This document shows positions 30,141 through 53,172 of a stretch of 64,000 nt of DNA, piece by piece; position 1 is the stretch's first letter, and each line of letters begins with the position of its first letter. Source of the stretch: Patescibacteria group bacterium (lineage in GTDB: Bacteria > Patescibacteriota > Patescibacteriia > Patescibacteriales > UBA12075). Position numbers and translations under genes: made by a program. The DNA is taken from positions 476,565 to 540,564 of the forward strand of contig JAHILH010000001.1 of assembly GCA_018897195.1 (NCBI GenBank), given 5' to 3'. The notes below the pieces were generated by a model. The model did no database searches and had not been told where the DNA came from. It saw only the letters and a program-made list of their open reading frames with translations.

Positions 30141-30602
30141 TTATTGAGAAATAATTTCCGTTGATGACGAGATTTGATCGATGTTTTTTAGTGTCTCAGG
30201 ACTTGAAGAGGCTGTTTCAAGACTATTAGTAGAGCTTGCCACCACTGGCTTTATTGCTTGAGTAGAAGTCGCCGTTGTCGTGGCTATAATTGTAGTTTCT
30301 TTGCTAGTTGTTGCTTCTATTTTTTCTTCACCAGTCGGTATCACCATTTTTCTATTTAACAAATCCTTATCAATCACAATCCCTGATCTTTCTGTACTTG
30401 TTGAATTATTACCAACACCACTCTCATCTAAATAAGCAGCATCACTGCCAGCTTGAGAATCACTATTTTGCGTATTATTCATTTGTCCCTGATCGCTGCC
30501 ACTACCAACACCCATCCCGCCTATCCCCCACAAACCCAGATAACCAACACCGATTAATAATAAAATTAAAATTAAAATCATAATTGTTTTTTTCATATTC
30601 AA
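30141..30602 (-). CDS. membrane-anchored Ser/Thr-rich low-complexity protein
   Basis: 153 aa. N-terminal TM or signal anchor (TIMILILILLLIGVGYLGLW) followed by S/T/N-rich sequence. Confidence 0.5.
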   Translation of the reverse strand: MNMKKTIMILILILLLIGVGYLGLWGIGGMGVGSGSDQGQMNNTQNSDSQAGSDAAYLDESGVGNNSTSTERSGIVIDKDLLNRKMVIPTGEEKIEATTSKETTIIATTTATSTQAIKPVVASSTNSLETASSSPETLKNIDQISSSTEIISQ

Positions 30603-30655
30603 GATATATCAATAGACACTAACGCAATTTGCCGTAGCAGATTATGCCTTAATAT

Positions 30656-32899
30656 TTATTCCAAAATTTTTACATAGGTTGCGCTAACCCAACCTTCTTG
30701 TGTCTCATCGACTTTTATCTTATACCACTCCCCCTGGTTGTCTATTAATTCATAAACATTTTTCGGGTAAATCTTGGTAAGGATTGCGGCTTTGGTTGAT
30801 GAGGCCACTCGAACATTTAACCATGTCAAACCAGAATCGTCAAGGGAGACAAATTTCTTCTTACTATTGGCAAATAAAGCACTTAAGTCTTTAATAGAGC
30901 TAGCTTCACCAATCCCTTGCTGACTACTACTCGCCTCAGCAGCCCCTTGCTCCACACTTAAATCAACCTTTTGCCGGACCGCCACTTCTTTGTTTATAAT
31001 TTCAGAATCTTTTACAATAACTGCAGTGGTCGTAGCCATGACATTAACCGGCTTTGTCTTTGTCGCAATATTAACCCTGCCAGTTAAATAATATTCCTCA
31101 CCGTCTTTTTCCAAATTCAAAACTTCAACATTTTTAAAGCCAAAGTCTTTGTCATTATTATGTTGCTTTTTCGCTTCAGCGATAAACTTCGCTGTCACAT
31201 CTTTTTCATTATAAATCAACCACTCCATTGTTACTGGAAAAATAATCTTTTTCACTTCTAACACATTTATATAATGCTCCCATAATTTTTCACCAGGCTT
31301 AGTTTGTTTCAAGGCAAATTCCTTACTCTTTACTACTAATTTATCAATAGCTAAATTTTCTTTATAAACATCTTTATAAATCCTAGCCTTAATACTACTA
31401 GCACCGTACCCTGTCTTCCCCGTCGCAACGAGCACCTTAACATTGATAGCTTTTTCATAAGTTTTTTGTTGTTCAATTGCCAATTGTACTTTTTTGGCAC
31501 TCTGACCGCGATACCAAAAAGCCCAGCCAAGCAACGCAGTACCAACAACTAATAATACCAATAATTGCACCAACTGCTTATGCTCTTTTACCCAGGCGAG
31601 CTTATCACTCCCCTCTGACTCTTCCTGCATTTCTTCCATTTCGTCATCCAGGGGCGCTAAACCATATTCATTGGCATTAAAATTTAATGGAAAAACAGGT
31701 GAAATTTTATTCCAGGCAGTGTTATACCTTCTTAAAGCCAGACCCAGGGCCTCGGTAAACTCGATTGACAAACCCTCGGCCAAGATCTGACCATTGCTAA
31801 CTTTAATATCCTTGTTGGCGGTCTTATCTTCTTCTCCTTCGGCATTTTTAACAATAAGCTCATATTTCAAACCAGACAAGTTAGATGAGAGATATTCGAC
31901 AGATCCTTTTAGTTTACTAGAGCCGCCAACCAAAATAACTTCATTAATTACCTTGCCTGTCTTCATATTGTAATACTTAAGTGCGGTTTTTACCTCCTCA
32001 ACAATTTGCAACATGGCGCTTTTTAAAATTATTGGCACATTAACAAATTTTTCCGAAGGTAATATTCCAATCTCACGCTTTAACTGTCCAACCTCCTTGT
32101 GGTCATAGCCACTCTCTGTGCCATCTGCTTTTTTGCCAATACCATCTTGCAGTTTTTTGGAAAAATAATTACCAGCCGCATTAATAGCGCTCGAATACAT
32201 CAGGCCATGTTCGGAAATAATACTAACATTGGTAATACTGGCACCGATGTCAACTATTAAAATCGCATGGTCTAATAAGTTTCCAAATAAACCCTGAAAA
32301 GTTGAAAAAGTTTCCAGGGAAAAATCCTCTACTTTCAACTCCAGGGCTGCAAAAATATTTTTCCATTCTTCCACTACTTCATTTTGAACACCAACCACCA
32401 ACACCCTAATCTTTTCTATCAATTCGACTTTTTTTTCTACTTTGTTTTTAGGATTCTTGTTATTTTCTTCAAAATCATAAAAAACTTCATCAGCCACAGC
32501 CTTAAATCTTTCCAAAATTTTATAGGAAAAAACCAAGTCCTCGCGATTCAAGGGGATGGAAGATAAGGCCTCATCATAAGCAATCTTGTTCAAGTCTTTT
32601 TCTTGGCTGGCATCAACTTCAAAAATATGAGAATACACTTGTCTTTCCGGAATAGCAAATGATATCTCCTTGGGAACAATTCGTCGCGGACTAGCCTCGG
32701 CAAAAACTTTTTTAACATATTCCTTTAGTCTTTCCATGTTCATAATACGTCCATTCGAAACCACGCCCGGATCCATCAAAATCATACCTGAACTTACCAC
32801 TTCAAATTTTTTATCGAAACACCTAACATCAACCACTTTTATACTGTAGTCGGAAATATTTATGCCTACTAAATTTTTATTGGGGCAAACCTTAATCAT
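30656..32899 (-). CDS. pilM: PilM-like actin-fold pilus assembly protein fused to a TM segment and C-terminal SH3b-like domain
   Basis: 747 aa. The N-terminus (VGINISDYSIKVVDV...GVVSNGRIMNMERL) and LIVDIGASITNVSI...VILVGGSSKL fit the PilM/FtsA-like ATPase fold. A TM helix follows (LVQLLVLLVVGTALLGWAFWY). The C-terminal WLNVRVASS...WYKIKV...GWVSATYVKI is SH3b-like. Confidence 0.7.
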   Translation of the reverse strand: MIKVCPNKNLVGINISDYSIKVVDVRCFDKKFEVVSSGMILMDPGVVSNGRIMNMERLKEYVKKVFAEASPRRIVPKEISFAIPERQVYSHIFEVDASQEKDLNKIAYDEALSSIPLNREDLVFSYKILERFKAVADEVFYDFEENNKNPKNKVEKKVELIEKIRVLVVGVQNEVVEEWKNIFAALELKVEDFSLETFSTFQGLFGNLLDHAILIVDIGASITNVSIISEHGLMYSSAINAAGNYFSKKLQDGIGKKADGTESGYDHKEVGQLKREIGILPSEKFVNVPIILKSAMLQIVEEVKTALKYYNMKTGKVINEVILVGGSSKLKGSVEYLSSNLSGLKYELIVKNAEGEEDKTANKDIKVSNGQILAEGLSIEFTEALGLALRRYNTAWNKISPVFPLNFNANEYGLAPLDDEMEEMQEESEGSDKLAWVKEHKQLVQLLVLLVVGTALLGWAFWYRGQSAKKVQLAIEQQKTYEKAINVKVLVATGKTGYGASSIKARIYKDVYKENLAIDKLVVKSKEFALKQTKPGEKLWEHYINVLEVKKIIFPVTMEWLIYNEKDVTAKFIAEAKKQHNNDKDFGFKNVEVLNLEKDGEEYYLTGRVNIATKTKPVNVMATTTAVIVKDSEIINKEVAVRQKVDLSVEQGAAEASSSQQGIGEASSIKDLSALFANSKKKFVSLDDSGLTWLNVRVASSTKAAILTKIYPKNVYELIDNQGEWYKIKVDETQEGWVSATYVKILE

Positions 32900-33287
32900 T
32901 TAAACTCCATTTATTAATAATTATTTTATCATTATTTATTACTACATTGGCGGTAATTTTTTTATGATAATCAGTAATTGTGCCTTCTGCTATAATCAGA
33001 CGCTCATCACCACCGCCCTCCACGGTCATCAAACAAGAGCCGTCACCTTGCATTAAATTTAAATCTATTACCGCGTAATTATGATCAAATTGCAAACGAC
33101 GCAATGATTCTTCAATGCAACCCTCTGTTAAATACTCCACCTCGCTTTTTTTGTCAGAAACAAAGGAAGTGTTCAGGCTGCTCATGCTCAAAAAAGCAGC
33201 ACTACGTGCCATAATCAGCGCAGCCGCTCCAATCACCAAAATTGTAAATATCGCCGCCATACCTTTTTGATTTGATAAATTTTTCAT
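32892..33287 (-). CDS. pilus-associated membrane protein (pseudopilin-like N-terminal helix)
   Basis: Start set at the ATG at plus 33285-33287 (MKNLSNQKGMAAIFTILVIGAAALIMA). It sits within the pseudopilin operon. The prepilin motif is not canonical. Confidence 0.5.
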   Translation of the reverse strand: MKNLSNQKGMAAIFTILVIGAAALIMARSAAFLSMSSLNTSFVSDKKSEVEYLTEGCIEESLRRLQFDHNYAVIDLNLMQGDGSCLMTVEGGGDERLIIAEGTITDYHKKITANVVINNDKIIINKWSLND

Positions 33288-33288
33288 A

Positions 33289-33813
33289 TTAGCGAAGTGT
33301 AATACTTGTCTGATATTGTTTATTATATTCATATGCCCTGCTGTTATGATAGCGATATTCCATATCCAAGTTTATAACAATATTATCTTTTTGCCCGAGC
33401 AAAGCAGTATTCACAAAGGACAAATCTTTTATATTAATCTCGTCACCGCTAATTTGTGTTGCATCAGCTATACCCTCAGCTAAATATAAAATGCCATCAG
33501 TCACCGAAAAAGTCATATTTTCTTCTGGATCCGGCATGTCCAGCACCAAAATATTGGTCGTCGAATCCCCGGTTAATGGCGACAAAACTTGCCGCGATTT
33601 TTTCAAATAGTCCTCCAAAAAATTAATCGTTAGCGCGCCATTCGCTTCCACGTCTTGGATTACCGAAGTCTTTGCGCGCAAATCCGACATTTGCGAACCA
33701 AAACCAACAAATAAACCAACGGAGACACCGATAAAAGCGATATACATTATCGCTTCAACCAGGGTAAAACCTGACAGATTTTCTATATTTTGTTTTAACT
33801 TTCTTTCAAACAT
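33289..33813 (-). CDS. type IV pilin-like protein (prepilin N-terminal methylation motif)
   Basis: 174 aa. The G/FTLVE motif is SGFTLVEAIMYIAFIGV. Confidence 0.8.
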   Translation of the reverse strand: MFERKLKQNIENLSGFTLVEAIMYIAFIGVSVGLFVGFGSQMSDLRAKTSVIQDVEANGALTINFLEDYLKKSRQVLSPLTGDSTTNILVLDMPDPEENMTFSVTDGILYLAEGIADATQISGDEINIKDLSFVNTALLGQKDNIVINLDMEYRYHNSRAYEYNKQYQTSITLR

Positions 33814-34787
33814 TAATTATAATTTATTCTCATTTCTTGCAGAATTGGCGTTGCGACACTATTGCCGCTAAATTCAATGCGATATTTTATCCAACGTTTT
33901 TCGTTACAATCCGTATTTAAAAATTCCCCAGTTGAAGTCGCAAAATAATCACTCTCATCACCATCATCACCATCTGGTCCAGACCAGGTTTGATTCCAAT
34001 CACCAGGAGCATCAGCAACATCAAGGGCGGTCTTAATTAAAACTCTTATTTCGCACTCCGGGCACTCACTTGTTTTCGTACCAGTAGCTGTCCATTCAAT
34101 AATATTAAAATTTCCGCCCACGGGAATTGAAAAGGCCGATGATTCCAAATAAGCACTAATCGCGTAAGTAGACGTTGCTATTTCCTTTAGCGTCACCGAA
34201 CTCGAGCTCGCCTGAACATTACCATCATCATTGGCGTATTTACTTGCATCCACCCAAATATCCTGTCCAAGACCACCAGACCAATCATTCTGCTTCCAAA
34301 AAGACGAATCCCAATTGGTCAAATACGTTACACGCCGAGCTTGTTTTTGATCAAGCCCCATTACTTCCCAATTCACCACCACTTCTACCTTTTTACTATA
34401 TAAATCCAAGATTGCACCCACTGCATTGCTAGCTACTAGCTCGCCGCTGTCATTTCGAAAAATTGGATAAAAATTAATTTGACGACCAAAAATACCGACC
34501 TGTTCACTTGTCCCTTCACCCATTAATTCCCAATGACCACCATCACGACTCAAAGCGCTTTGCTCATAAAGCAAATTATTCCATTTATTATCCTTAATAA
34601 AACGCACAGCCTCAATTCCCTCATTAGCTAAATTATTCGCCTGCGTGATTTCTGATTGTCGTGTCAAAAGACTAAAACCGCCCATTAATAAACTCGCCAA
34701 AGATGTTGTAATCAATGAAAAAATTGCCATCGCTATTACAATTTCCATTAAAGAGCTGCCTTGATTATTTAATCTAAATTTCAACAT
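33813..34787 (-). CDS. type IV pilin-like (minor pilin) protein
   Basis: 324 aa. N-terminal QGSSLMEIVIAMAIFSL (class III signal-like, with Glu at +5). Confidence 0.7.
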   Translation of the reverse strand: MLKFRLNNQGSSLMEIVIAMAIFSLITTSLASLLMGGFSLLTRQSEITQANNLANEGIEAVRFIKDNKWNNLLYEQSALSRDGGHWELMGEGTSEQVGIFGRQINFYPIFRNDSGELVASNAVGAILDLYSKKVEVVVNWEVMGLDQKQARRVTYLTNWDSSFWKQNDWSGGLGQDIWVDASKYANDDGNVQASSSSVTLKEIATSTYAISAYLESSAFSIPVGGNFNIIEWTATGTKTSECPECEIRVLIKTALDVADAPGDWNQTWSGPDGDDGDESDYFATSTGEFLNTDCNEKRWIKYRIEFSGNSVATPILQEMRINYN

Positions 34788-35244
34788 GCGTTTTTATTTC
34801 CAGGGGAATTCCGTATTGATTAATCTCTATGCCTCTTTTTTCACCACCAAAATTAAATTCCACTTGCCCTATTGCATCCGGATCACCAGCACTTTGTGTG
34901 TAATTTATATCATTAGCTGGAATCGTTGTTGAAATGGTTACGCCTGGTTCCAAATTCAAAACTTGGTCATAGACCTCATCACGAATGAAAAACGAAGGAC
35001 CTTGATATAAAACAACTTTATGGTTACCGGGATCAAAATACACGCCGTGATTAGCTCCCCGCAAGCCGGCTCGACTCTGCTCCCGCGCTGAACGCAAAAA
35101 ATCAACCGCCTGGGCCAAACTTTCATCTAATTTTGTTGACGCTTGCAGATTACCGTATAACGGAATTGAAATAACCGAAATCGAAATGGTTAAACCAATA
35201 GTTATTAACAATTCAATTAATGAAAAGCCTTGTTTGTTTTTCAT
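34774..35244 (-). CDS. type IV pilin-like protein (GspH/FimT-like)
   Basis: Start set at the ATG at plus 35242-35244 (MKNKQGFSLIELLITIGL). It carries a prepilin cleavage/methylation motif. Confidence 0.75.
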   Translation of the reverse strand: MKNKQGFSLIELLITIGLTISISVISIPLYGNLQASTKLDESLAQAVDFLRSAREQSRAGLRGANHGVYFDPGNHKVVLYQGPSFFIRDEVYDQVLNLEPGVTISTTIPANDINYTQSAGDPDAIGQVEFNFGGEKRGIEINQYGIPLEIKTHVEI

Positions 35245-35421
35245 AAAAGCAAAAAACACCCTCAAAACAAGCACCCTTCCCCTCCTTTTTTCCTCCTTGC
35301 TTATGAGCATACTTTATGAGAATATTATAACACAAATAGCAACGAAAAACAAAATATTTTCAAAACAAAAAAAATACCATTCATTGTAAATGGGATTTTT
35401 AAAAAATCTATATTAAACAAC

Positions 35422-36165
35422 CTAGTTAAGGTGGTATTTTTCGAAAAATTTTATAACCAAATCAATCTCTACCTGCACCCTTTCTTCAATTTCAAGCTTT
35501 AAAATATTAGCGAAACTATTTTCCAAAATTTTCCGTAATAAAATAACAGCCTCAATTGAAACTAAAATATTATATTTTCGCTCTTCTGGAAGGGCGCTCA
35601 CACAGTGCTCACACTCCAACCCACCCTTCTTGGCATTAAAATATAATTTTTTCGACTGATCAATTTGGCCACAGCCAAGGCATGTATTCAAAATTGGTTG
35701 ATAGCCGAGCAAGGACATTAATTTAAAAATAAAAAATCCATAGTCTTTTTGTGTAGTCGAACATTCATCTTTCTCGACTGCTTTAACGGAATTTAGGCTG
35801 CTCAAAAAATCGACCAATAGAAAAAAAATGTTTTCATCTACCTCGTGCGCTTTCACAACTTCACCCACGCGCCGCAAAACTGCACCCGTGCTCATTATCT
35901 TATTATAATCTTCTTTAAGATTGCGAAAACAATCGCGTGCCAAAGCTGAGCCGACATAATCATAGTTCTTTCCTCTGATTATCATAATTTCCACCAATGA
36001 CATCGGTTCTAGATGCGCCGCCAACTTCGACTTTGCCTTCTTTGTTCCCCGCGCAATCAGCTCCATTAAACCCTTTTCTTGACTATAAACCAAAACACGA
36101 CCATCGGTTTCCCGAAAGTCGTCTCTTTTCAAAATTATACCCTGGATATTGAAGGTTTCGTTCAT
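35422..36165 (-). CDS. recO: DNA repair protein RecO
   Basis: 247 aa. An OB-fold N-terminus (GIILKRDDFRETDGRVLVYS...IARGTKKAKSKL) and a Zn-finger (CLGCG...CEHC). Confidence 0.85.
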   Translation of the reverse strand: MNETFNIQGIILKRDDFRETDGRVLVYSQEKGLMELIARGTKKAKSKLAAHLEPMSLVEIMIIRGKNYDYVGSALARDCFRNLKEDYNKIMSTGAVLRRVGEVVKAHEVDENIFFLLVDFLSSLNSVKAVEKDECSTTQKDYGFFIFKLMSLLGYQPILNTCLGCGQIDQSKKLYFNAKKGGLECEHCVSALPEERKYNILVSIEAVILLRKILENSFANILKLEIEERVQVEIDLVIKFFEKYHLN

Positions 36166-36536
36166 ATCGAATCAAAATAACTTTGCAAAATCTCCATCGC
36201 CGCAATCTCATCGCGCGAAGCTTTTGTTTTTTTGTCACCGATGCGAGCATCACCAGCCTTACTTGATAAGCGTTCGTCAACCTCTTTAATTGGAATATCA
36301 ATTGCCTGTTTCAAACTTTCCAAAAAATCCGCAAATCTTTGCGGGAGCTTGTGCGTCACGTCGGAAATCGAATAAGGCACGCCAATGACCACCACTTCAA
36401 TCTCTTCGCTCTTAATGATTTTCACCAACTCTCGAAAATCATTGGCAACCTTAAAAGGTGAAGCGAGTTTTACTTCGTCTTCACCTATGGCCAAACCAAT
36501 TCTTTTTTCCCCCCAATCAACGCCTAAATATTTCAT
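36162..36536 (-). CDS. ruvX: Holliday junction resolvase-like protein RuvX/YqgF
   Basis: 124 aa. MKYLGVDWGEKRIGLAIGE is typical of YqgF. Confidence 0.85.
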   Translation of the reverse strand: MKYLGVDWGEKRIGLAIGEDEVKLASPFKVANDFRELVKIIKSEEIEVVVIGVPYSISDVTHKLPQRFADFLESLKQAIDIPIKEVDERLSSKAGDARIGDKKTKASRDEIAAMEILQSYFDSI

Positions 36537-36570
36537 AGATTATTTATTTTAATTTTCATTCCTGGTTAGA

Positions 36571-36609
36571 CTGCCCCTCACCCCGACCCTCTCCCGCGGG
36601 GCGAGGGAG
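36571..36609 (+). repeat. Family-A repeat, forward copy (intergenic)
   Basis: Sequence ctgcccctcaccccgaccctctcccgcggggcgagggag. It shares the extended 5' flank agactgcccc with the copy at 63304. Confidence 0.9.
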
Positions 36610-36618
36610 AATTAAAAA

Positions 36619-36867
36619 TTATTTCTTCTTTTTAATTGCATTAATACCGATAATCGTGCCCAAGACAGCCGCCGCCCCGGCGACACCAGCCAATACCTGA
36701 TGCTTGGTTTTTTCATCGGTCTTCGCATATTTGTCTTTGGCCAGTTTCACTAATTTTTCAATTTGTACAATACCTTCGTTAATTTTTTCAGTCACCACGT
36801 CTTTTATCTCATTTTTTTCGCCTACTTTTGGCTTGCAACTTCGACAAGCGGTTTTTTTGACTACCAT
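36619..36867 (-). CDS. hypothetical small protein with C-terminal membrane anchor
   Basis: 82 aa. Helical N-terminus and a C-terminal hydrophobic segment, LAGVAGAAAVLGTIIGINAI. Confidence 0.5.
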   Translation of the reverse strand: MVVKKTACRSCKPKVGEKNEIKDVVTEKINEGIVQIEKLVKLAKDKYAKTDEKTKHQVLAGVAGAAAVLGTIIGINAIKKKK

Positions 36868-36926
36868 ATTTTTAGAGTTAGTTTATAAAGATAATTCTAT
36901 TATATTAATAAAAGATTAAGATAAAA

Positions 36927-37709
36927 TTAAAAAGCTGTAATCACCTCACAACCATCATCGGTCACTGCGACCGTATGTTCAAAATGAGCGCTCACGCTAC
37001 CATCAGTGGTTACGATTGTAAAACCGTCATTGGCATTTCTAACTTGATATTTTCCAATATTAACCATCGGCTCAATCGCGATTGTCATGCCAGATTTCAA
37101 AATAATGTTATCCATACTCTTCTTGGGGATTTCAAAATTTGGTACTTGGGGCGCCTCATGAACGCCGTGTCCAACCCCATGACCAACTAAGTCACGAACC
37201 ACGGAATAACCACGTGCCTCAACATATCTCTGTACGGCTATGCCAATCTCGCGAATTTCCGCTCCCGCTCTTACCTTGCTAATCGCTAACTCCAAAGACT
37301 TCTTTGTTGCCTCCAGTAGATTTAAAATCTTTTTATCAACTACGCCCACTGGTACCGTAATTGCCATATCTGTAAACATCCCATTTTTGGCCGGATACTC
37401 CATACCAATATCAATTCCAATAACATCCCCTTTTTTTAAGATCCTGGCTGGTATTGCTGGACCATGAACAACCTCACTATTTATCGAAGTGCACAATGCA
37501 GTCGGAAAAGGCTTTGCACTACCCACCTTATATCCCTTAAAAGCTGGTCTACCTCCTGCCGCCAAAATCAACCGATTAGCTTCTTTTTCGAGATCTGCAG
37601 TACTCACGCCTGGTTTCACCATGTCGCCTAATTTAGCCAAAATACTAGACAATATATTACCCCCCTCGCGCATAATCGCAATTTCTTCTTTTGTTTTAAT
37701 TGTTATCAT
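36927..37709 (-). CDS. map: type I methionine aminopeptidase
   Basis: 260 aa. Metal ligand contexts are present: VHG, DIGMEY, GHGVGHGVHE, AIEP, HFEHT. Confidence 0.93.
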   Translation of the reverse strand: MITIKTKEEIAIMREGGNILSSILAKLGDMVKPGVSTADLEKEANRLILAAGGRPAFKGYKVGSAKPFPTALCTSINSEVVHGPAIPARILKKGDVIGIDIGMEYPAKNGMFTDMAITVPVGVVDKKILNLLEATKKSLELAISKVRAGAEIREIGIAVQRYVEARGYSVVRDLVGHGVGHGVHEAPQVPNFEIPKKSMDNIILKSGMTIAIEPMVNIGKYQVRNANDGFTIVTTDGSVSAHFEHTVAVTDDGCEVITAF

Positions 37710-37775: not shown

Positions 37776-38870
37776 CTAATTCTGCACATTGCCCGTCATC
37801 TTATAGATAGGTGTGATAATAGCAATCGCCAAACCACCAACCATTAAACCAATAAAAATCAAAAGCATCGGCTCAATGGCGGTTGAAAGAGTTTTAGTGG
37901 CATTATTAACCTCAGTTTCATAATAATCAGCCAAATACGTCAATACCTCTTCCAAGCGACCGGAATTTTCACCAATCTTAAGCATGCTCACCAAAAGAGA
38001 CGGAAAAAGATTGCCATGACGACTAAGGTTCTCCGACATTTTGGTTCCTTGCCTAGTCTTCATAGCCAAATCTTCCAAGGCCTTTCGATAATAATAATTA
38101 TCAATCGTATCCTTAGTAATGCGCAAGGCCTCGTCAATATTTAAACCACTTTTTAATAGTGTTCCCAGGGTAGAAGAAAAAATCGTTAAATTTTTATTGC
38201 GGCTAATATTTTTTACAATCGGAATTTGCAAAATTAAATAATCAGACACCGGTTTAAAAAACTTCTGTCTAAATATCCATAATAAAAATATTACCCCCGC
38301 AACAATCATCGGAAAAAGAAGTTTACCTTGTTTTTGGATAATATCAGAAAAAGCGATTAAGACCCGAGTCGACATTGGCAAATCCATACCCAAGCCCTTG
38401 AATAGCGGCGTTATTTTTGGTAAAACGACAAAAGAAATCGCCATAGCTAAAACGAAAGCCAAGGTCAAAACAATCATCGGATATACCATCGCGCCTTTAA
38501 TCTTATCCATCAACTCCTTGTCCTTTTTTAAATGATTAGCCAAGTTATCTAAATTCTCATCCAAGGTTCCCGACGACTCACCCACAAAAACTGTATTTAC
38601 AAAAATAGGTGGAAAAATTTTGGGAAATTTTCCCAGCGAAACTGATAAAGAATTGCCTGCATCAACCGATCGTTTAATCACACCAATAACTTTCTTTAAC
38701 TTTCCTTCAGCCTGTCCGTAGACAATATCCAAAGCCTCTGTAATCGTCAAACCAGACTTCAACATCACGGCCAAATGCTTCGCAAAGGTAATTTTTTGAC
38801 CAAAATTAATACCACCGATACTAATATCCATATCTAGCGCGCTTTTTTTAGGATTGTTTATTTTTTGCAT
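37776..38870 (-). CDS. pilC: type IV pilus / T2SS platform protein (GspF/PilC family)
   Basis: 364 aa. Two GspF-type repeats and three TM segments. ENSGRLEEVL and EPMLLIFIGLMVG are present. Confidence 0.88.
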   Translation of the reverse strand: MQKINNPKKSALDMDISIGGINFGQKITFAKHLAVMLKSGLTITEALDIVYGQAEGKLKKVIGVIKRSVDAGNSLSVSLGKFPKIFPPIFVNTVFVGESSGTLDENLDNLANHLKKDKELMDKIKGAMVYPMIVLTLAFVLAMAISFVVLPKITPLFKGLGMDLPMSTRVLIAFSDIIQKQGKLLFPMIVAGVIFLLWIFRQKFFKPVSDYLILQIPIVKNISRNKNLTIFSSTLGTLLKSGLNIDEALRITKDTIDNYYYRKALEDLAMKTRQGTKMSENLSRHGNLFPSLLVSMLKIGENSGRLEEVLTYLADYYETEVNNATKTLSTAIEPMLLIFIGLMVGGLAIAIITPIYKMTGNVQN

Positions 38871-40611: not shown

Positions 40612-40980
40612 TTATTCCTCCATTAACGCCTCCAACACTGTTGCGATAATCTGCTTTTGCGAATAAGAATCTTTTTGCAAATATTTATAAGCCCCCAGCG
40701 CCAGCGCCTCATCAATGTCTTTTTTTTGTGACAAAATTGAGGCCACTAAAACTTTAACATCTTTTAATATTTTGTCTTTTTTAATTTTTGCCAAAAAATC
40801 AAAGCCATTTATACGTGGCGAAACAAGTTCAAGTAAAATTAAATCCGGCTTATTTTCACTAGCCATCTTTAAACCTTCTTCACCATTTGAAGCTAAATCT
40901 ACAGTGATATTCTGTTGATAAAGCTCTGATTGATAAATTGTTTTAGTTGTATTATCTTTTTCAACTACAAGAACTCGCAT
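40612..40980 (-). CDS. single-domain response regulator (receiver)
   Basis: 122 aa. Motifs: MRVLVVEKD, DLILLELVSPRINGF, YKYLQKD. It lies between cheD and pilB. Confidence 0.8.
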   Translation of the reverse strand: MRVLVVEKDNTTKTIYQSELYQQNITVDLASNGEEGLKMASENKPDLILLELVSPRINGFDFLAKIKKDKILKDVKVLVASILSQKKDIDEALALGAYKYLQKDSYSQKQIIATVLEALMEE

Positions 40981-45362: not shown

Positions 45363-46403
45363 TTAAAAACATAATTCTTTTATTTTTTTAATTATATCTT
45401 TAACCCCCAAGCTCTCATCAATCACACCCGTATCCCAAGCAGAACGAGGCATTGAATCAACAACTGCCTCTTCTGGTAGTTGTGTAATTGTATAGCCACT
45501 CTCATTTTCAATTTCAACCATACCATCACTACCGTCTCGGCCCATACCAGTCAAAACGATTCCCATGGTTTTTTTTCCATAAAGTTTCGCTACCGATTCC
45601 ATGGTATAATCAATCGAAGGACGAAAACCATTTCGCAACGGTTTGTCATCCAAATGAATAACTACGCGCCCATCAACCATTTTATTCAACAACATGTGCT
45701 TACCACCTCTGGCAATAATACATTTACCAGGCAAAAGTTCTTCTCCCTCTGATGCTTCCACAACACTTAACTCAGACAGGCCATCCAATCGATTGGCTAA
45801 ACTAGCCGTAAAATGCTCAGGCATGTGCTGCACCACTAGAATTGGTGCCTTGATATCCTTCGCCAATGAAGAAATTATTTCTTCTATTACTGGCGGTCCG
45901 CCGGTTGAGGCTCCAATAACCACGACGCTAATCTTGCTATCTTTTTTAATTTTTTCCTTTCTTTCTATTTCTTTATAATCTGTTTTTTTAACCTTAGCCG
46001 CTATTTTAATCTTATTAATCAACTCTCTTTGAATTTTTTTGATATCCAGGGATAGCTCGCCTGATGGTTTGGGAATAAAATCGATGGCTCCATGTTTTAA
46101 ACACTCCAATGTTTCTGTCGCTCCTTCCATGGTATTTCCTGACACCATTAGAATTGCAGGAAAAATATCCATAGCAGCCTTGATCTTTTTAATCGCCTCC
46201 AAACCATTCACTAGGGGCATATTATAATCCATGGTAATGACATCGGGGCGCAGAATTTTTGTCTTCAAAAAAGCATCTTCTCCATCTATGGCCTCGCCAA
46301 CAATATCGATTTCCGGATCATCCTTTAATAGCTCGATTAATATTTTTCTTGTCAAGAAACTATCATCAACTATTAGCAATCTTATTTTTTCATCTTTATT
46401 CAT
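45363..46403 (-). CDS. cheB: chemotaxis response regulator protein-glutamate methylesterase CheB
   Basis: 346 aa. A receiver domain (RLLIVDDS, DVITMDYNMP) plus a methylesterase domain (IGASTGGP, HMPEHFT, TGMGRDG). Confidence 0.92.
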   Translation of the reverse strand: MNKDEKIRLLIVDDSFLTRKILIELLKDDPEIDIVGEAIDGEDAFLKTKILRPDVITMDYNMPLVNGLEAIKKIKAAMDIFPAILMVSGNTMEGATETLECLKHGAIDFIPKPSGELSLDIKKIQRELINKIKIAAKVKKTDYKEIERKEKIKKDSKISVVVIGASTGGPPVIEEIISSLAKDIKAPILVVQHMPEHFTASLANRLDGLSELSVVEASEGEELLPGKCIIARGGKHMLLNKMVDGRVVIHLDDKPLRNGFRPSIDYTMESVAKLYGKKTMGIVLTGMGRDGSDGMVEIENESGYTITQLPEEAVVDSMPRSAWDTGVIDESLGVKDIIKKIKELCF

Positions 46404-46412: not shown

Positions 46413-46775
46413 TTAAGCCATGACTTGTTCAATCGTTTCTAACATTTTATCCTTATCAAATGGCTTGACAAGGTAGCCCTTGGCACCATAATCAGTCGCT
46501 TTTTTAATGACGTTTTCTTGTCCAATAGCGCTTACCATAATCACATTCACCTCTTTACCAATCTCTTTAACCACGGCAATTCCGTCAATTTCTGGCATGA
46601 TTATATCCAAGAGGATCAAGTCTGGCTTTTCGGCGTGATATTTCTCAAGCGCCTCTCGACCGTTTGAAGCTTCAATAATATTCGTAAATCCAGCCTCTTG
46701 TAAAATTTCTTTTAGCACTTTTTTTATCAAAATACTATTATCAACTATTAACACCTTTATTGCTTTATTCATCAT
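46413..46775 (-). CDS. cheY: chemotaxis response regulator CheY, copy 1
   Basis: Receiver domain. Motifs: KVLIVDNS, DLILLDIIMPEIDG, YLVKPF. The track start is TTG; the ATG at plus 46773-46775 is preferred. Confidence 0.85.
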   Translation of the reverse strand: MMNKAIKVLIVDNSILIKKVLKEILQEAGFTNIIEASNGREALEKYHAEKPDLILLDIIMPEIDGIAVVKEIGKEVNVIMVSAIGQENVIKKATDYGAKGYLVKPFDKDKMLETIEQVMA

Positions 46776-46797
46776 ATAATACAAAATTAATCAAAAA

Positions 46798-47157
46798 TTA
46801 ACCAACTACTTTCTCAATTGTTTCCAATACTTTACTCTTGTCAAATGGCTTAACAATAAACGCCTTCGCGCCATATTCAGTAGCCTCTTTTATGACACTC
46901 TCCTGTCCAACAGCACTAACCATGATAACATTGGCTTCCTTGCCAATCTCCTTAACCACGGCCACGCCGTCGACTTCTGGCATAATCACATCCAAAAGAA
47001 CCAAATCTGGCTTTTCAGCATGATATTTTTCTAATGCTTCTCTACCATTTGAAGCTTCGATAAAATTTGTAAACCCTGCTCCCTGCAAAATATCTTTCAA
47101 TACTTTTCTCATAAAAGCCGAGTCATCTGACATTAAAATTTTAATATCTGTTTTCAT
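46798..47157 (-). CDS. cheY: chemotaxis response regulator CheY, copy 2
   Basis: Start set at the ATG at plus 47155-47157 (MKTDIKILMSDDS). Highly similar to copy 1 (for example SNGREALEKYHAEKPDL is shared). Confidence 0.85.
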   Translation of the reverse strand: MKTDIKILMSDDSAFMRKVLKDILQGAGFTNFIEASNGREALEKYHAEKPDLVLLDVIMPEVDGVAVVKEIGKEANVIMVSAVGQESVIKEATEYGAKAFIVKPFDKSKVLETIEKVVG

Positions 47158-47218
47158 ATTTTTAGTATCTAATAATGACAAATCAATGATCTTGCCATCA
47201 TTATTTAAATTAATAAAA

Positions 47219-47803
47219 TTATTTTTCTGTTATATCCTTGATTGTTTTACCAAGTTGTAACAACTCCTTCTCCTGAAGCATTTTCTGTAAATCTAAGAGA
47301 ATTACTAAGCGGGAACCATTTTTCTTTTCCTGGTCATTCTTTTTTTTCTCCTGATCAATGATCACCACTACTCCTTTGAGATATTCGGCATGAATTTTTG
47401 ACGAAACCAAGGCTGGTGTTGCTTGGATTGATGACACTGGCACGGTAATGATTTCGCTAACTCTATCAACAATTACACCAAAATTATTACCATCCACTTC
47501 GGTAATTATTATATTACCATCAATCCGATCACTATTATCCCGAACCAAATTAAATCTTTTTTCCAAATCAACAACCACACTTATTTTTCCTCTTAAATTC
47601 AAGATACCGCTAATAAAATGAGGCGCATTAGGGATGGGCGTAATGTCTGGAATTGTGATTATTTCTTGCAAATCAGCAATCTCTACCGCATATTCCTCCT
47701 TATCAAGCTCAAAGACAACTAATTGCATTGTTTTCTCAATTTTGTTTTTATCTTGATCTTGTTGCCTGGCAACATTTTTAATTGTATCTTCAACAGTGCT
47801 CAT
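47219..47803 (-). CDS. cheW: chemotaxis coupling protein CheW
   Basis: MQLVVFELDKEEYAVEIADLQEIITIP...ILNLRGKISVVVDLEKRF is typical of CheW. The ATG at plus 47801-47803 is preferred over the GTG track start. Confidence 0.88.
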   Translation of the reverse strand: MSTVEDTIKNVARQQDQDKNKIEKTMQLVVFELDKEEYAVEIADLQEIITIPDITPIPNAPHFISGILNLRGKISVVVDLEKRFNLVRDNSDRIDGNIIITEVDGNNFGVIVDRVSEIITVPVSSIQATPALVSSKIHAEYLKGVVVIIDQEKKKNDQEKKNGSRLVILLDLQKMLQEKELLQLGKTIKDITEK

Positions 47804-47864
47804 ATTTTTCTTCACCACGCCACAGCTTTAGCATTGGCGGGCTTTGTAATTAAATATTTATAGC

Positions 47865-49601
47865 TTATTCTTCATCCCCATCTTCATCTTCCTCACCTTC
47901 TAACTCTTCCTGCTTTACCGCCTTTTTCTTGACTATCTTTTTAACACTAACCTTTTGTTCAATATTGTCACCCACCTCACTGACTGCTCTTATCAAGCTC
48001 ATCAAATCAGTTGAAAGCGCTTGTAATTGCTGTGCGGCGGCGGCCACCTGTTGATTCGCTGAACTTTGCTGTTGCGTTGTGGCTGATAGTTGTTGTGCGC
48101 CGGCTGAATTTTGTTCCGCAATTGAAGTAATTGAATCCATACTCTTAGCAATCTGTTGTGTGCTGGCTGCTTGTTGTTGAATGCCAGCTGACAACTCTTG
48201 AATCTTGGCAGAAACCTGCATTACTGATGCGGAAATATTTTGCAATGAACTAATAGTGCCATTAATAACCACCGAGCTCTCCTCCACTGTCTTGGTTCCC
48301 TCTTCGGCCACCCTGGTCGTTTCGTCAATACTGGAAATCATGTCAGCAACCAAAAGCTTAATCTGATCAGCGGCGCTACTTGAGCCCTCAGCTAATTTTC
48401 TCACTTCATCAGCCACCACCGCAAAACCACGACCCGCTTCGCCCGCACGCGCTGCTTCAATATTGGCATTCAAGGCTAAAAGATTTGTTTGCTTGGCAAT
48501 ACCGGTTATTGTTTCCACAATGTCGCCAATCTTTTTTGATTTTCCAGATACACCCTTAGTCATTGTCGCTGTATTTGAAACAATACTCTTAATAGCATCT
48601 AAACTTGATCTTGATTTTTCACTAGCTTGTCCAGCCTCTTGCGCTAAATCGGAAGACTTTTCTGCCGTCGAAGCTGCCTCTTGGGCCGAAGCGGACATTT
48701 GCTGCACTGAGCTCGCCATAGCAGAAATCGCTTTACCGACATCTCCAGCCTGTCTTGATTGTTCAGTGGCACCAGCTGCCACTTGCTGTGAAATTGACGA
48801 TGTCTGTTGTGCGGCTGCAGAGTTCTGTTGTGCAGTCGCTGCCAAAGCATTAGCCGAGGAAATCATTTGAGAAATTGAGCTATTCAAACGATAATTGACC
48901 GACTTGGTGATAATATAAATAGCCAATCCGCCGATAACTACACCCAGGACTGACAAAGCGTATATCATTAATAATAGGAAATTAAGCCTGCTTGCGGAAT
49001 TATCCATGTCGTCTTGAAATATTTTTTCTACGTTAGCGTTAATAACTTTTATTCCAGCTGTCATTTCCGCATAATGTCTATCAAATAAATCCATTTTCCC
49101 TGCAATCATTGCCTGATCTTTAGCCCGATAAGCCGCTAAAATACCATTCTTGTATTCCTCCTGAGAAGTCATGCTAGCATCCATTGCTTTTAAACTTGCC
49201 AAATCCTCCTTGTTAAAAAAACTAGCATCCGTGGTTGTTAGTTCGCCCAACTGTTCCAGAAAAATTTTTTTATTTTCATTAAACAAGCCTTCGCCCTTCA
49301 TAATAGCATCTTCCATTTTCATATTTCCGGAATAGTCGGTCTCACCATTTTTTATGGCGAATAGATAATCCGCCATTCCTTCCACAAATGAAGCATGCGA
49401 CGAATACATTTTTTCCACAGCTATGTCCATCTTGTTCAAGCTAACCACAATCTCGTTAGAGATAATTGCCTGATTAATATCTGTTTGAATTATCTTCATG
49501 CTAAAAAAGATAATTCCCAAGAAAATCAGAAAAACAACAAAAATGGAAGCAAAGCCCAAAATAATTCTTTTGCCGATTGTTAAATTTTTAAAATCCATCA
49601 T
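47865..49601 (-). CDS. methyl-accepting chemotaxis protein
   Basis: 578 aa. Two TM helices flank a periplasmic-type domain. The signalling hairpin is [38 protein letters not shown]. The tail is acidic. Confidence 0.9.
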
Positions 49602-49737: not shown

Positions 49738-51363
49738 CTACTTCCTAGTTCTATAAACCAAATCTCTTAACAAATCAGATAAACCAGCAACCTGGGAGGA
49801 TATTTTGGAAATACCCTTGTTGGATAAATTAAGCTCTTTAATAATATCTAATAATTTACTAGCATTCATCGAATTTTGCTCAGTAACGCTTGACACAGAG
49901 TCAAAGGCATTGGTTATTTCCTGCACGCTCTCCGTTTGCTTTCGCACACCGATAAATAATTCCGCGGTTCTGGCAACAACTACTTCAATTGATTCTGTTA
50001 TTTGAGCTAATTCAACAATCATATTATCAACATCGTTCATGCCCTTAGTCATTATTTTTTCACCAGTATCAGCCGACTCCACAGTCTCGCTAATACCCAT
50101 TGTTAGATCATCGATCAATTTTCTAATATCCTCCGTGGCTTTATTTGTCTCATCGGCTAATTTTCGCACTTCCTCTGCAACAATCGCGAAACCGCGACCA
50201 GCTTCACCGGCGGCAGCTGCCTCAATTGAAGCGTTAAGAGCTAATAAATTTGTTTGTTCGGAAATATTATCAATGACTCCAACAATATTATAAATACTTT
50301 TTGATTTGTAAGACATTCCTTGTGCAATTTCCAGAGTGTTCATGACAATATTCCTAATATCGCTCAAACTTTTTTGTGAATTACGGCTATTACCCTCAGC
50401 TCGTTTGGCCATTTGCGAGGCCAGTGATACTGAATCATTAGCCTCTTTAATAACACTTGAAATTTGCTCAGCTGACTCTGCCATCTCTCTTACTAATAAT
50501 GATATTTCTCCTGATTTTCTGGATTGCATTATAGCTCCCTCGGCCACTTCGCTAGAAATATTAGACACATTCTCTGATATTTCCTTATTTTTACTAAGAA
50601 AGCTAATAATATTTGAAGCCATTTTCTTTACATCCCTAATTGGTGATACTAATATTGCCCTAATTGTTTTAGAAAAATGTCGCGAAAAAAATATACCCAC
50701 TATGACAATAAAGACAATCATAAAAACATTGAGAAGCATTAGGATTTTCAAAAAATTACCGATAGTTATTGCATTAACGCTATATTTTTCATTTAATTTA
50801 CGACTTAGGCGCGATATATCACCCAATGCCTCATTATAGATATTGTCAAAATTATTCAAATTTTCCTGAATGTCATTATCATGCTCATGGTAAGAGCTTA
50901 GTAACTTATCATTTACTTCTTGCAAGAGGACTGATTTTTCTTTAAGTCGCTGAGCAGACAAGACAACATCGCCATCAATCTTGGGGATATTTTCAATATT
51001 GCTCAAGCTGCCCGAAACATCAGCCATAATCTTCAAAAATAGCTCATTTCCCTTATCATAGTACCCCTCTTCTTGTTTTTTTACTTCCCCGGCAGAAATA
51101 GTAGCCAAACCATTAGAGGACACTAAATAGCCGATCTGGTATAAATGACTAACGTCTTTTATCTGTGCAATTTTCATACCCAACTCCTCAACATAAGAAT
51201 TGGAATAAATAATATTATTAATAGTTGATTCGACATTATCCCTGACCACTGACAAGACAATTAAAAAAATACCCCCCATGAGGGCGGTAAAAACGAAGAT
51301 AATAAAAAATCCAAAACTAATTTTTTGGATAACAGTCTGTTTTTTCCCCTTAATTAATGACAT
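49738..51363 (-). CDS. methyl-accepting chemotaxis protein
   Basis: 541 aa. The signalling hairpin is [39 protein letters not shown]. Confidence 0.9.
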
Positions 51364-51610: not shown

Positions 51611-51991
51611 TTATAATCCAGCTATTTTTTTATTAGCTAATTCAACTACATCGTCTAATTTCCACTCTGTTTTCACCAAAAAGAAAGCATTATTTTCCGC
51701 CGCTTCCATCATGCTCTCGTGGTCGTTTAAATTAGTCAAAATAATTATTGGCACCTTGTTGCCCCAAGTCTGTTCAGCTCTTATTTTCTTCATCACCGTT
51801 ATGCCATCAAATTTTGGCATTAGAATATCCAACATAATCAAGTCCGGTTTTTTATCCACGGCAATTTCGTAAGCCTCTTCTCCGTCGCCAGCTCGCAAAA
51901 CATTAAAACCGGCTTTTTTAAATTTGTTTGATAAAGCATCAAGTATTGCCATCTCATCTTCAGCAATTAATACTGTTTTTTTTTCTGACAT
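51611..51991 (-). CDS. single-domain response regulator (receiver)
   Basis: Start at the ATG at plus 51989-51991 (MSEKKTVLIAEDE). DLIMLDILMPKFDG is present. Confidence 0.8.
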   Translation of the reverse strand: MSEKKTVLIAEDEMAILDALSNKFKKAGFNVLRAGDGEEAYEIAVDKKPDLIMLDILMPKFDGITVMKKIRAEQTWGNKVPIIILTNLNDHESMMEAAENNAFFLVKTEWKLDDVVELANKKIAGL

Positions 51992-52047
51992 AAAATTATA
52001 ACATCTAAATAACACATCAATTAAAATATAATTGTCCTGTGATAAGC

Positions 52048-53172
52048 TTATTCAATATTCTCTAGTTGCTTCGTTCCCGCCCGTTTCTTCATTCCTTTTA
52101 AAGGAATAGTAATAAAAAAAGTTGTTCCTAATCCGCTTTTCATCAGGTTCTTCCAGGCCTTCTTACCACCTTCTTCAATAAAAAACTCCATACTCGGCGA
52201 TTCAAACCAAATCTTACCGCCAGATTTTTCAATTACTGCCTTGGCCACATAAAGACCAAGACCATTACCACCAGCAACCATTTTCTTGGCATCAGCCGCG
52301 CGAAACATTTTAGAAAACATTTTAGATCGAAGTTCGCGAGATACGCCAACACCAGTATCAGAAACTTTAATCAAGATGTTGACATCAGTCTTCTTGATTG
52401 TAAAACGAACTCTGCCTCCGTCTGGAGTATATTTCACCGCATTAGATAAAATATTTTCCAAAACAATCAAAATTAAGCGCGGATCAAGATTTAATAAGGG
52501 CATTTTTTCAAAATTTTTCTCAAAGATAACTTTCTTAAGTTTGATAATGCTTTCGTATTTCTTCACCGCTTCATTGGCTTTCTTAATAATATCTGTCGGT
52601 TCAGGTTCAATCGAGAAAGTTCCCAAGTCAATCCGAGAAACATCCAGTAAGGCATTTACCAAATCAATCATACGTTGATTAGTTTTAAAAATTTCGCCTA
52701 GATATTTTTTTTGTTCCGCATTTATTTCGCCAGCATCGCCACACAAAATATAATCTGAATACCACTTTACAATTGATAATGGCGTTCGCAGCTGATGCGA
52801 AGCCAAGGACACAAAATCAGCTTTAGCCTGCTCTAATTCTCGACTTACAGAAGTATCCATTGCCACTCCAGACTTTAAGCGCTCCATTAAATTATTTAAA
52901 GAATCTGCAATCTGGCTAAGTTCATCCCTTTTTTCGATTTTAATCTGCTTGTTAAGATTACCGGCCGCCATTTCGCCAATTGCCAAGGCAATATCTCTGT
53001 TTTTTGCTAATAAATTCTTGACCGAAAAATAAACAACGCCGAAGGCCAAAAAAGCTAAAAACAAAACAAGAGCCTCTCCAACTTGTTCGTAATCACTCAA
53101 GAAAACAAAAACCGACACCAAGCTTAAAACAAATAACAAAAAAACAAAAACTATCTTTTTTAATATATTCAC
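52048..53172 (-). CDS. sensor histidine kinase (TM, HAMP-like, HisKA, HATPase_c)
   Basis: 374 aa with a GTG start. H-box is FVSLASHQLRTPL. NAVKYT, DTGVGV and GNGLGL are present. Confidence 0.85.
   Translation of the reverse strand: MNILKKIVFVFLLFVLSLVSVFVFLSDYEQVGEALVLFLAFLAFGVVYFSVKNLLAKNRDIALAIGEMAAGNLNKQIKIEKRDELSQIADSLNNLMERLKSGVAMDTSVSRELEQAKADFVSLASHQLRTPLSIVKWYSDYILCGDAGEINAEQKKYLGEIFKTNQRMIDLVNALLDVSRIDLGTFSIEPEPTDIIKKANEAVKKYESIIKLKKVIFEKNFEKMPLLNLDPRLILIVLENILSNAVKYTPDGGRVRFTIKKTDVNILIKVSDTGVGVSRELRSKMFSKMFRAADAKKMVAGGNGLGLYVAKAVIEKSGGKIWFESPSMEFFIEEGGKKAWKNLMKSGLGTTFFITIPLKGMKKRAGTKQLENIE

Follow-up and report, generated by a model that had tools for sequence, protein, structure and literature searches.

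An F1-related chemosensory gene cluster linked to type IV pilus genes in Parcubacteria and other bacteria of the Candidate Phyla Radiation

Results

Chemosensory genes adjoin pilB in distant CPR lineages

In a 64-kb stretch of DNA from a Patescibacteria group bacterium (contig JAHILH010000001.1, positions 476,565 to 540,564; hereafter the window), the genes of a CheC/CheD-type chemosensory pathway are followed, across short gaps without a detectable terminator, by genes for a receiver (REC3), PilB, and PilC, and then by further type IV pilus genes. The parts of the pathway are present with intact catalytic and phospho-acceptor motifs, and the linkage of the che genes to pilB was found to be conserved among bacteria of the Candidate Phyla Radiation (CPR). 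It is proposed, with moderate confidence, that this bacterium, a member of the Parcubacteria within the CPR, possesses a complete F1-related chemosensory pathway whose output would be the type IV pilus machine and not a flagellum; less confidence is placed in the mechanistic details of the wiring. The retention of this adjacency in distant CPR lineages suggests that chemical stimuli probably direct the pili of these cells or switch them on and off.

All 26 genes named in an initial annotation of the block were recovered by open reading frame (ORF) listing and by Pfam and NCBIfam scans, in the order given there and on the minus strand from 53172 to 30141, and the spacers it had reported between cheD and the receiver gene and between the receiver gene and pilB proved to be exactly 17 nt each. 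The same annotation had stressed that the che and pil genes form a physically fused, co-directional block. They do share one strand, but this carries little weight, as nearly all genes of the window lie on the minus strand (only three, at 5922-6575, 6697-7311, and 22266-24098, are on the plus strand) and the GC skew is negative across the entire window. As the co-directionality of the block is therefore uninformative, the support for an association of che and pil genes is comparative (seven of 11 CPR loci against none of 102 controls, as set out below).

The CPR set consisted of the window and ten loci carrying relatives of its CheA, picked for long contigs, whose gene contexts were retrieved; one further locus, L094, came from a metagenome scan. 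A che block running directly, or through a receiver gene, into pilB was present in seven of the eleven CPR che loci, namely the window and six of the ten retrieved. The locus with the most similar CheA (L087, 83% identity) has the architecture of the window, including an insert running from map to recO, and in L001 (61%) the order CheD-REC-PilB-PilC, four pilins, and PilM/SH3 is contiguous. L088 (51%) repeats the L001 arrangement and has a second set of histidine kinase, receiver, PilB, and PilM genes upstream. Among the remaining linked loci, CheD is followed by PilB in L089 (46%), where the pilins lie upstream of the chemoreceptor gene; CheD, four receiver genes, PilB-PilC, and a pilin-like gene follow one another in L092 from Gracilibacteria (46%); and the order is CheC-REC-PilB-PilC in L093 from Wolfebacteria (45%). 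Each CPR locus has outer flanks of its own.

As controls, 159 non-CPR che loci were collected by a CheA profile scan of genome contigs and a scan of metagenome contigs with a CPR CheC profile, and were searched by tblastn. A scan of genome contigs with a single CheA protein gave no match. Among the matches listed, the profile scan of the same contigs returned Archaea, Firmicutes, and similar groups and no CPR loci, and these matches were used as outgroups and controls; the metagenome scan returned nearly exclusively non-CPR loci, L094 being the only one of CPR type. Of the loci in which the sequence ran on for 5 kb or more past cheA on the downstream side, 7 of 11 of CPR type and 0 of 102 non-CPR ones with CheC contained PilB in full length, defined as a coverage of 80% or more (Fisher p = 8.5e-9, a value that overstates the case, and to that extent counts against it, because the CPR loci are mutually related and were selected for long contigs). 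In a neighbour-joining tree, the pil-linked loci were dispersed across 47 of the 50 tips that make up the CPR CheA clade, which indicates that the linkage is old or recurrent and not the result of a single recent rearrangement. No other candidate output gene (transcription factor, GGDEF protein, or the like) was consistently present in the CPR che clusters. The clusters without pil genes end in one to three stand-alone receivers, and L005 ends in CheD. In L090, a gene for an H-NOX (HNOB) haem NO/O2 sensor (13170-13697) follows CheD-REC at the place where other loci have pilB.

The receiver encoded beside pilB lacks the phospho-acceptor aspartate

Receiver positions were numbered by alignment to E. 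coli CheY, the reference sequence being used as a ruler only. The canonical phospho-acceptor Asp57 was found in CheY1 (46798-47181; D12, D13, D57, S87, and K109), in its tandem paralogue CheY2 (46413-46784), and in REC0 (51611-52015; Asp57, Thr87, and Lys109), a stand-alone receiver near the head of the block. REC3 (40612-40980), a lone receiver of 122 amino acids (Pfam Response_reg, 67 bits), has E, E, and K at the positions of CheY D57, D12, and D13, so that the acidic pocket is lost, while S87, Y106, and K109 are retained. Its Glu57 lies in the context LILLELVSP and is encoded by GAA. This residue is kept in L087, L001, and L088 and in all 10 of 10 database relatives of 63-100% identity, whereas relatives at or below 40% identity carry Asp, as do the receivers of Wolfebacteria and Gracilibacteria at the position equivalent to REC3, which keep Asp57. 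With a receiver fold and no acceptor aspartate, REC3 is an aspartate-less receiver (pseudo-receiver), and with Glu at the acceptor site it is not a CheA substrate at that site.

Because distant CPR lineages keep Asp57 in the equivalent gene, it seems that the output receiver encoded beside pilB was originally phosphorylatable and that the aspartate-less form was derived from it in the clade of the window. The additional gene set of L088 (1-7797) encodes a dCache-HAMP-PAS-HisKA kinase, a receiver with Asp57, PilB, and a PilM-SH3 fusion, immediately upstream of the cluster with che genes, REC(Glu57), and PilB. As REC-PilB here stands behind an ordinary kinase, it looks like a module in its own right.

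Organization of the block

The block opens with the gene for a membrane histidine kinase (52048-53172; two predicted transmembrane helices and HAMP-HisKA-HATPase_c by Pfam), followed by that for REC0. A counterpart of the kinase is also present in L087, and kinase/receiver pairs precede the che genes in L005, L088, and L092. Gaps between the genes of the block reach 247 nt at most. The spacer of 17 nt ahead of pilB contains a strong Shine-Dalgarno sequence (AAGGGAGG), which leaves no room there for a promoter and leader. No intergenic terminator-like hairpin was found on the coding strand from the kinase gene to pilC; since the terminator-like sites found in the whole scan (11, against 12.3 expected) were at chance level, the missing terminators are weak negative evidence.

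The pathway has F1 features and a CheA without a P2 domain

CheA, CheW (47219-47818; Pfam, 114 bits), CheY, and CheB were found by Pfam and NCBIfam together with CheC and CheD, which is the auxiliary set of the F1 class. The best NCBIfam models were CheC_Thtogales, CheD_Thtga (128 bits), and CheA_Halo, and the assignment to a CheC/CheD-type pathway made in the initial annotation was borne out. Its assumption that these two proteins otherwise go with flagella overlooks the Archaea, where the same pathway type controls the archaellum.

Both chemoreceptors (methyl-accepting chemotaxis proteins, MCPs) are transmembrane proteins whose sensor domains have no Pfam match. MCP1 (49738-51363; MCPsignal by Pfam) has no HAMP domain. 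Its first arm, between the second transmembrane helix and the hairpin tip, comprises 153 amino acids and its second arm, which ends at the C-terminus, comprises 154; both correspond to 22 heptads, the length of a 44H receptor. MCP2 (47865-49601; Pfam) is likewise of 44H-like length. Its best relative of solved structure is the 44H receptor TM1143 of T. maritima (2ch7, E=3e-32), with an alignment that needs one 7-residue gap. MCP2 also has an acidic C-terminal tail and 11 consensus Glx-pair sites, mostly QQ, which lie symmetrically 80-130 amino acids either side of the tip.

CheA (43447-45309) consists of P1(Hpt), a linker, P3, P4, and P5. According to Pfam, a single Hpt domain is followed by dimerisation, HATPase, and CheW domains with no receiver, so the protein is not ChpA-like. 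No Pfam match to a P2 domain was obtained between P1 and P3. Residues about 130-234 form a K/E-rich low-complexity linker instead; relatives carry similarly variable linkers, and such a region stands in for P2 in all CPR CheAs inspected. The linker is encoded in part by two tandem repeats (Tandem Repeats Finder), a perfect repeat of 15 bp x 6.7 at 44693-44793, which encodes (PKIEE)n, and one of 15 bp x 2.6 at 44840-44878, which encodes (EDAKA)n. The window CheA has seven PKIEE copies against three in P0001, a 97%-identical CheA from another sample.

The best 120 of thousands of CheA relatives were 39-100% identical to the window CheA; the 100%-identical P0006 is the CheA of the window itself in partial form. 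Those with a taxon name were from Patescibacteria, Parcubacteria, Pacebacteria, Uhrbacteria, Wolfebacteria, Magasanikbacteria, and Gracilibacteria, and two others were named just 'bacterium'. Among the matches listed in the genome-contig profile scan, the closest non-CPR CheAs were archaeal and Firmicute, at 30-42% identity. In the neighbour-joining tree of 182 CheAs, the 50 from the CPR formed a separate split (100/100 bootstrap). A sister-group position of DPANN archaea appeared in this tree with a bootstrap of only 36/100, and no claim is made for it; the nearest neighbours were the DPANN CheAs of L020 and L027, on contigs from metagenome-assembled genomes of Nanobdellota and Woesearchaeota. 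The L020 cluster holds cheR, unlike the CPR loci. Judged from its gene content, the pathway is F1-like but not standard F1. The system is F1-related and pilus-linked, belonging neither to the type IV pilus (Tfp) class nor to canonical F1; it was filed as an F1-related pilus-linked variant because PilB, PilC, PilM, and the pilins are bacterial, CheF and CheR were not found, and CheA has no P2.

CheB, CheC, and CheD are encoded without a recognizable CheR

CheB (45363-46403; Pfam, 200 bits) combines a receiver with a methylesterase/deamidase domain whose catalytic motifs GASTGG, QHM, and GMGRDG are intact, and CheD (40998-41480; Pfam) is a predicted receptor glutamine deamidase. Between CheA and CheD, three CheC paralogues of 203 amino acids each are encoded, predicted to be CheY-P phosphatases: CheC1 (42831-43442; Pfam CheC/CheX, CheC_Thtogales), a lineage-specific duplicate; CheC2 (42173-42784), which by alignment is the orthologue of the first CheC of L087; and CheC3 (41515-42126), in which both D/S-x3-E-x2-N active-site motifs were found by alignment. 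CheC1 and CheC2 are 64% identical, and CheC3 shares 91% identity with the second CheC of L087 and 62% with the single CheC of L001; CheY1 and CheY2 are 70% identical. The copy numbers are three CheC and two CheY in the window, two and one in L087 with its 83%-identical CheA, and one and one in L001. The identities and copy numbers point to a stepwise tandem amplification of cheC and cheY in the lineage of the window, with CheC3 as the ancestral copy.

Pfam and NCBIfam scans found no CheR in the 64 kb of the window, nor was one found in the extended flanks. With a Pfam-verified archaeal CheR as query, tblastn matched none of 12 CPR loci against 32 of the 159 control loci. No CPR-named protein was among the best 120 relatives of a DPANN CheR, a result that is suggestive only, as most of these matches are nameless. 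On the evidence of the loci, a CheR-less CPR pathway is a lead rather than a fact. A 322-aa methyltransferase encoded downstream of the pil genes (28971-29939) was considered as a substitute for CheR and rejected, since it gave generic class-I methyltransferase matches only and its position is not conserved in relatives. No CPR che cluster holds cheR despite the presence of CheB, CheD, and the consensus QQ/EQ sites of MCP2. A recurrent gene of ~190 codons lies between those for CheW and CheY in L005 (7970-8545), L092 (7965-8546), L089 (6988-7572), and L091 (8259-8822); it belongs to no Pfam family, is absent from the window, and in one copy has a marginal CheX match (E=0.015).

The pilus genes encode a type IVa-like assembly machine

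Type IVa-like assembly parts, namely PilB, PilC, PilM, and prepilin-type pilins, are encoded downstream of REC3. PilB (38903-40594), the type IV pilus extension ATPase, has an MshEN/GSPII N-domain and a T2SSE domain (Pfam, 419 bits). Its NCBIfam scores were 523 bits for GspE, 512 bits for PilB, and just 67 bits for FlaI, and as the PilB score lies under the equivalog cut-off (512 vs 676), the protein is a divergent member. A c-di-GMP-binding MshEN motif was looked for in the N-terminus and dismissed, the motif being degenerate by eye, with the conserved R, G, G, and Q positions missing. The platform protein PilC (37776-38870) has two T2SSF repeats. It is followed by an insert of map, an 82-aa transmembrane ORF, ruvX, and recO (35422-37709; Pfam). 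The insert is present in L087 and absent in L001 and L088, where pilC runs directly into the pilins, and these housekeeping genes are probably not part of the system.

The initial annotation had counted four pilin-like genes, which holds for three of them and with reservation for the last. Pilin-like protein 1 (34774-35310; motif G/FSLIELL, with an internal Met at residue 23 as the probable true start) and the large pilin-like protein 2 (33813-34787; 324 aa, G/SSLMEIV) match N_methyl. Pilin-like protein 3 (33289-33813) has no Pfam match and a clear G/FTLVE motif (G/FTLVEAI), and its equivalents in L001 and L088 match N_methyl weakly. The probable fourth minor pilin (32892-33332) has a hydrophobic N-terminus of the type G/MAAIF without Glu5; a gene at this position is conserved in L001 and L088. 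The last pilus gene encodes a 747-aa PilM fusion (30656-32899), comprising an actin-like part, one transmembrane helix (amino acids 441-464), and an extracellular region that ends in SH3_3. The PilM-SH3 fusion is conserved in L001 (741 aa) and in L088 (734 and 642 aa). At the end of the block lies an N-terminally anchored Ser/Thr-rich protein (30141-30602; transmembrane segment 1-32) without a Pfam or NCBIfam match. It was not seen at the same position in L001 or L088, and its membership in the system is uncertain.

Genomic surroundings

No flagellar family matched any ORF of at least 90 amino acids in the window, as the initial annotation had maintained, and none was found in about 16 kb of extra flank gained by extending the window 10 kb at each end, which added just NrdD, RF, and ABC-transporter genes. 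None of the 11 CPR che loci contains flagellar or archaellar genes. The window also codes for a DUF5671 protein, a minimal glycolysis, many DNA-repair proteins, and ComEC, a content that fits a CPR genome. Five of its proteins are identical to database entries annotated as Candidatus Parcubacteria bacterium or Patescibacteria group bacterium.

Several other genes in the surroundings deserve mention. A 7TM-GAF-HisKA histidine kinase (26692-28896, minus strand) is encoded directly downstream of the pil genes, and the minus strand also holds a GGDEF-domain protein (16422-17549), an additional stand-alone receiver (21795-22157), and an IS200-like Y1 transposase fragment (24216-24752) between uvrB and uvrC. 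A 217-aa DsrC-like protein (5922-6575, plus strand) is unexpected for a fermentative CPR genome. The ComEC homologue (61362-62942, minus strand; DUF4131 and Competence domains, no beta-lactamase domain match) lies 8 kb upstream of the block; it bears on a reading in terms of DNA uptake and is not linked to che-pil genes in relatives.

Discussion

A possible route from receptors to the pilus

In the pathway that we envisage, extracellular ligands would bind the two transmembrane MCPs, and the MCP-CheW-CheA core would set the activity of CheA, which would phosphorylate CheB and both CheY1 and CheY2. Dephosphorylation of CheY-P would fall to the three paralogues of CheC acting with CheD. As no CheR was found, CheC/CheD-based adaptation is proposed. 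In B. subtilis, methylation-independent adaptation is achieved by CheD shuttling between receptors and CheC, and a similar CheC-CheD-CheY-P feedback, supplemented by deamidation, may operate here. CheY-P would then act on the pilus motor, most plausibly on PilB, or on the PilB/PilC/PilM base, and would change pilus extension and with it the direction of twitching or attachment to host cells. REC3, which presumably cannot be phosphorylated, might act on PilB as a partner or adaptor in a permanently 'signal-like' state; its ancestor would have been an output CheY open to phosphorylation, such as other CPR lineages retain at this place. At the level of behaviour, the result could be directed twitching, control of host attachment, or DNA uptake.

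A wider version of this scheme is offered tentatively, as a possibility about which we are more doubtful than hopeful. It holds that many CPR bacteria steer their type IV pili toward hosts or nutrients through an ancient F1 offshoot with a P2-less CheA, no CheR, CheC/CheD adaptation, and a receiver-PilB module. Such a system would be an independent bacterial counterpart of the Che-archaellum coupling, and in the clade of the window its receiver would have become a locked Glu57 adaptor.

Weighing the alternatives

Several observations weigh against a pilus output. Four of the eleven CPR che clusters (L003, L005, L090, and L091) are without pil genes within 10 kb, so that the clustering of che and pil genes was met with in seven loci, the window among them, down to a CheA identity of 45%, and was lacking in four; L094 likewise has no pil genes in its 3.3 kb of downstream sequence. 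The suggestion in the initial annotation that a CheC/CheD pathway drives pili gains from the conserved pilB adjacency and loses from the obvious connector, REC3, being D57E. As predicted from its sequence, the receiver beside pilB cannot take phosphate at the canonical site, and the most direct wiring would be unavailable here. The pil genes of the window are broken up by housekeeping genes. Finally, neither pilT nor pilD was found in the window or the extended flanks, and no major pilin was found in the window, for which reason retraction-based motility remains a proposal.

Given these observations, the Che pathway might serve another cellular function, for instance through stand-alone receivers, and merely neighbour REC-PilB-PilC or share a transcription unit with it. 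This would suit the four clusters that end in stand-alone receivers without nearby pil genes (one of them then followed by the H-NOX gene) as well as the loss of the canonical phosphorylation site in REC3, and the REC-PilB set behind an ordinary histidine kinase in L088 indicates that the regulation of PilB needs no Che proteins. We nevertheless regard a separate function as unlikely, since the adjacency is retained where CheA is just 45-50% identical and all outer flanks have changed, is absent from the 102 comparable non-CPR loci, and is accompanied by no alternative output gene that is consistently present in the clusters. The same comparative results bear on the still less probable explanation that the compaction of a small genome with an extreme strand bias has brought the che and pil genes side by side and that their adjacency has no regulatory meaning. 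Nearly all genes in the 64 kb are indeed co-directional with short gaps, and the unrelated map, ruvX, and recO sit inside the pil genes; however, seven loci across Parcubacteria, Wolfebacteria, and Gracilibacteria keep the adjacency amid different surroundings, and the Fisher test against the control loci points the same way.

Control of a flagellum whose genes lie in another part of the genome would agree with the role of F1 systems in Firmicutes and Thermotogae, where CheA, CheC, and CheD of this type control flagella. We consider it highly improbable, as flagellar genes are missing from the 64 kb, from about 16 kb of flank, and from all 11 CPR che loci, and as Patescibacteria have been reported to lack flagellar assembly genes and to show no flagella in cryo-electron microscopy (PMC7137472). 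With these alternatives considered, an F1-related pathway with a pilus output is retained as the preferred reading.

Significance for CPR biology

To our knowledge, every CPR bacterium brought into culture is an obligate episymbiont. The locus provides a testable lead on the question of how cells of so small a size locate and select their hosts; the candidates to be tested are the receptors (the MCPs), CheY1 and CheY2, and the pseudo-receiver beside PilB. In cultivated Saccharibacteria, type IV pili drive twitching and host binding, and the papers that report this are silent on chemotaxis, CheY, and response regulators (PMC11623550, PMC9894109). Surveys of the CPR have described the group as without chemotaxis and motility machinery (PMC7137472, PMC11974145). 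Genes of this kind are already annotated in public metagenome-assembled genomes as 'chemotaxis protein CheA [Patescibacteria group bacterium]'. No description of a Che-pilus link in the CPR was found in the full-text literature, where subscription journals are mostly uncovered, so that a prior description is possible.

If the proposed output is correct, these loci would add to the Tfp class (Pil-Chp/Tax) another, independent class in which Che proteins are wired to pili, and would parallel the Archaea, in which a type IV filament has been coupled to a pathway of this type. Two biochemical oddities come with them: CheB and CheD occur where no CheR was found, and a pseudo-receiver with Glu57 would sit on the motor. 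The former prompts the question of how adaptation would work in such a pathway.

Comparison with known chemosensory systems

The flagellar F1 systems of B. subtilis and T. maritima share with the window two-site CheC, CheD, and CheB; the window receptors resemble theirs in being of 44H-like length, and MCP2 is closest to TM1143 among solved structures. The window differs in having no flagellar genes, FliY, CheV, or CheR, in the low-complexity linker that replaces CheA P2, and in its gene order, which is CheY-CheB-CheA-CheC-CheD as against the Bacillus-type CheB-CheA-CheW-CheC-CheD of control loci.

In Archaea, a CheC/CheD pathway controls the archaellum, which is a machine of the type IV filament kind and has an ATPase of the PilB family. 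The Che-archaellum systems of Halobacterium and Haloferax (CheA, CheW, CheY, CheB, CheR, CheC, CheD, and the adaptor CheF) are likewise F1-like, with CheC/CheD and several CheC paralogues of ~200 amino acids, and the Methanolobus cluster L014 (CheY-CheB-CheA-CheC...CheC-CheC-CheD) shares the CheY-CheB-CheA core order and multiple CheC genes with the window. The window CheA scores best on the haloarchaeal CheA model, and archaeal CheAs are among the closest non-CPR relatives listed. A further likeness would lie in the output, which in the window, as gene linkage suggests, would also be a type IV filament machine that an ATPase of the PilB family drives. The window machine, however, is of bacterial type (PilB 512 bits vs FlaI 67 bits; PilC, PilM, and pilins), there is no CheR, CheA has no P2, and the CPR CheAs form a clade of their own (100/100). 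Archaea use the adaptor CheF to connect CheY-P with the motor, a family with no match in the block proteins or in the Pfam tables of the CPR loci. The L014 cluster (Methanolobus sp. ZRKC2) also encodes, between CheC and CheR, a 707-aa protein (12667-14790) with PilM/FtsA/MreB-like matches of the actin fold and a ThiS-like region.

In the Tfp class, which comprises Pil-Chp and the cyanobacterial Tax/Pix systems, chemosensory control of type IV pili is established, with kinases of another architecture and without CheC or CheD. With the Pil-Chp system of P. aeruginosa (PilJ, PilI, ChpA, PilG/PilH, PilK, and ChpB), the proposed system would share a chemosensory output to the type IV pilus and single-domain CheY-like regulators that act on the extension machinery. 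As in Pil-Chp, the genes of the window lie near pil genes and the association is conserved, in terms of genomic linkage. The two differ in their kinases, ChpA being a multi-Hpt hybrid kinase with a C-terminal receiver where the window CheA has a single Hpt domain and no receiver, and in their accessory proteins, Pil-Chp having a CheR homologue and no CheC or CheD and the window three CheC, one CheD, and no CheR. The receptor class reported for PilJ also differs from the 44H length of the window receptors.

FrzS of Myxococcus xanthus is an aspartate-less receiver protein that regulates pili; it is large and multidomain and is not known to be encoded beside pilB. REC3 resembles it in having a receiver fold without the acceptor aspartate and in its association with type IV pilus genes, and differs in consisting of one domain of 122 amino acids, in having Glu in place of the acceptor, and in being encoded next to pilB.

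A receiver protein acting directly on PilB has been reported in the case of DrdR of Xanthomonas (PMC13507683). In cyanobacteria, CheY-like regulators act directly on PilB: in Tax1/Pix (PixJ-PixL-PixG/PixH), a Che-like kinase is reported to phosphorylate CheY-like regulators, with PATAN-CheY proteins binding PilB1 (PMC11181946; bioRxiv 10.1101/2021.06.11.447907). The window has no PATAN domain, photoreceptor MCP, or hybrid kinase, it alone of the two has CheB, CheC, and CheD, and it belongs to another phylum and another CheA lineage. The cyanobacterial Tax1/Pix system is the best mechanistic precedent for the receiver-PilB module proposed here.

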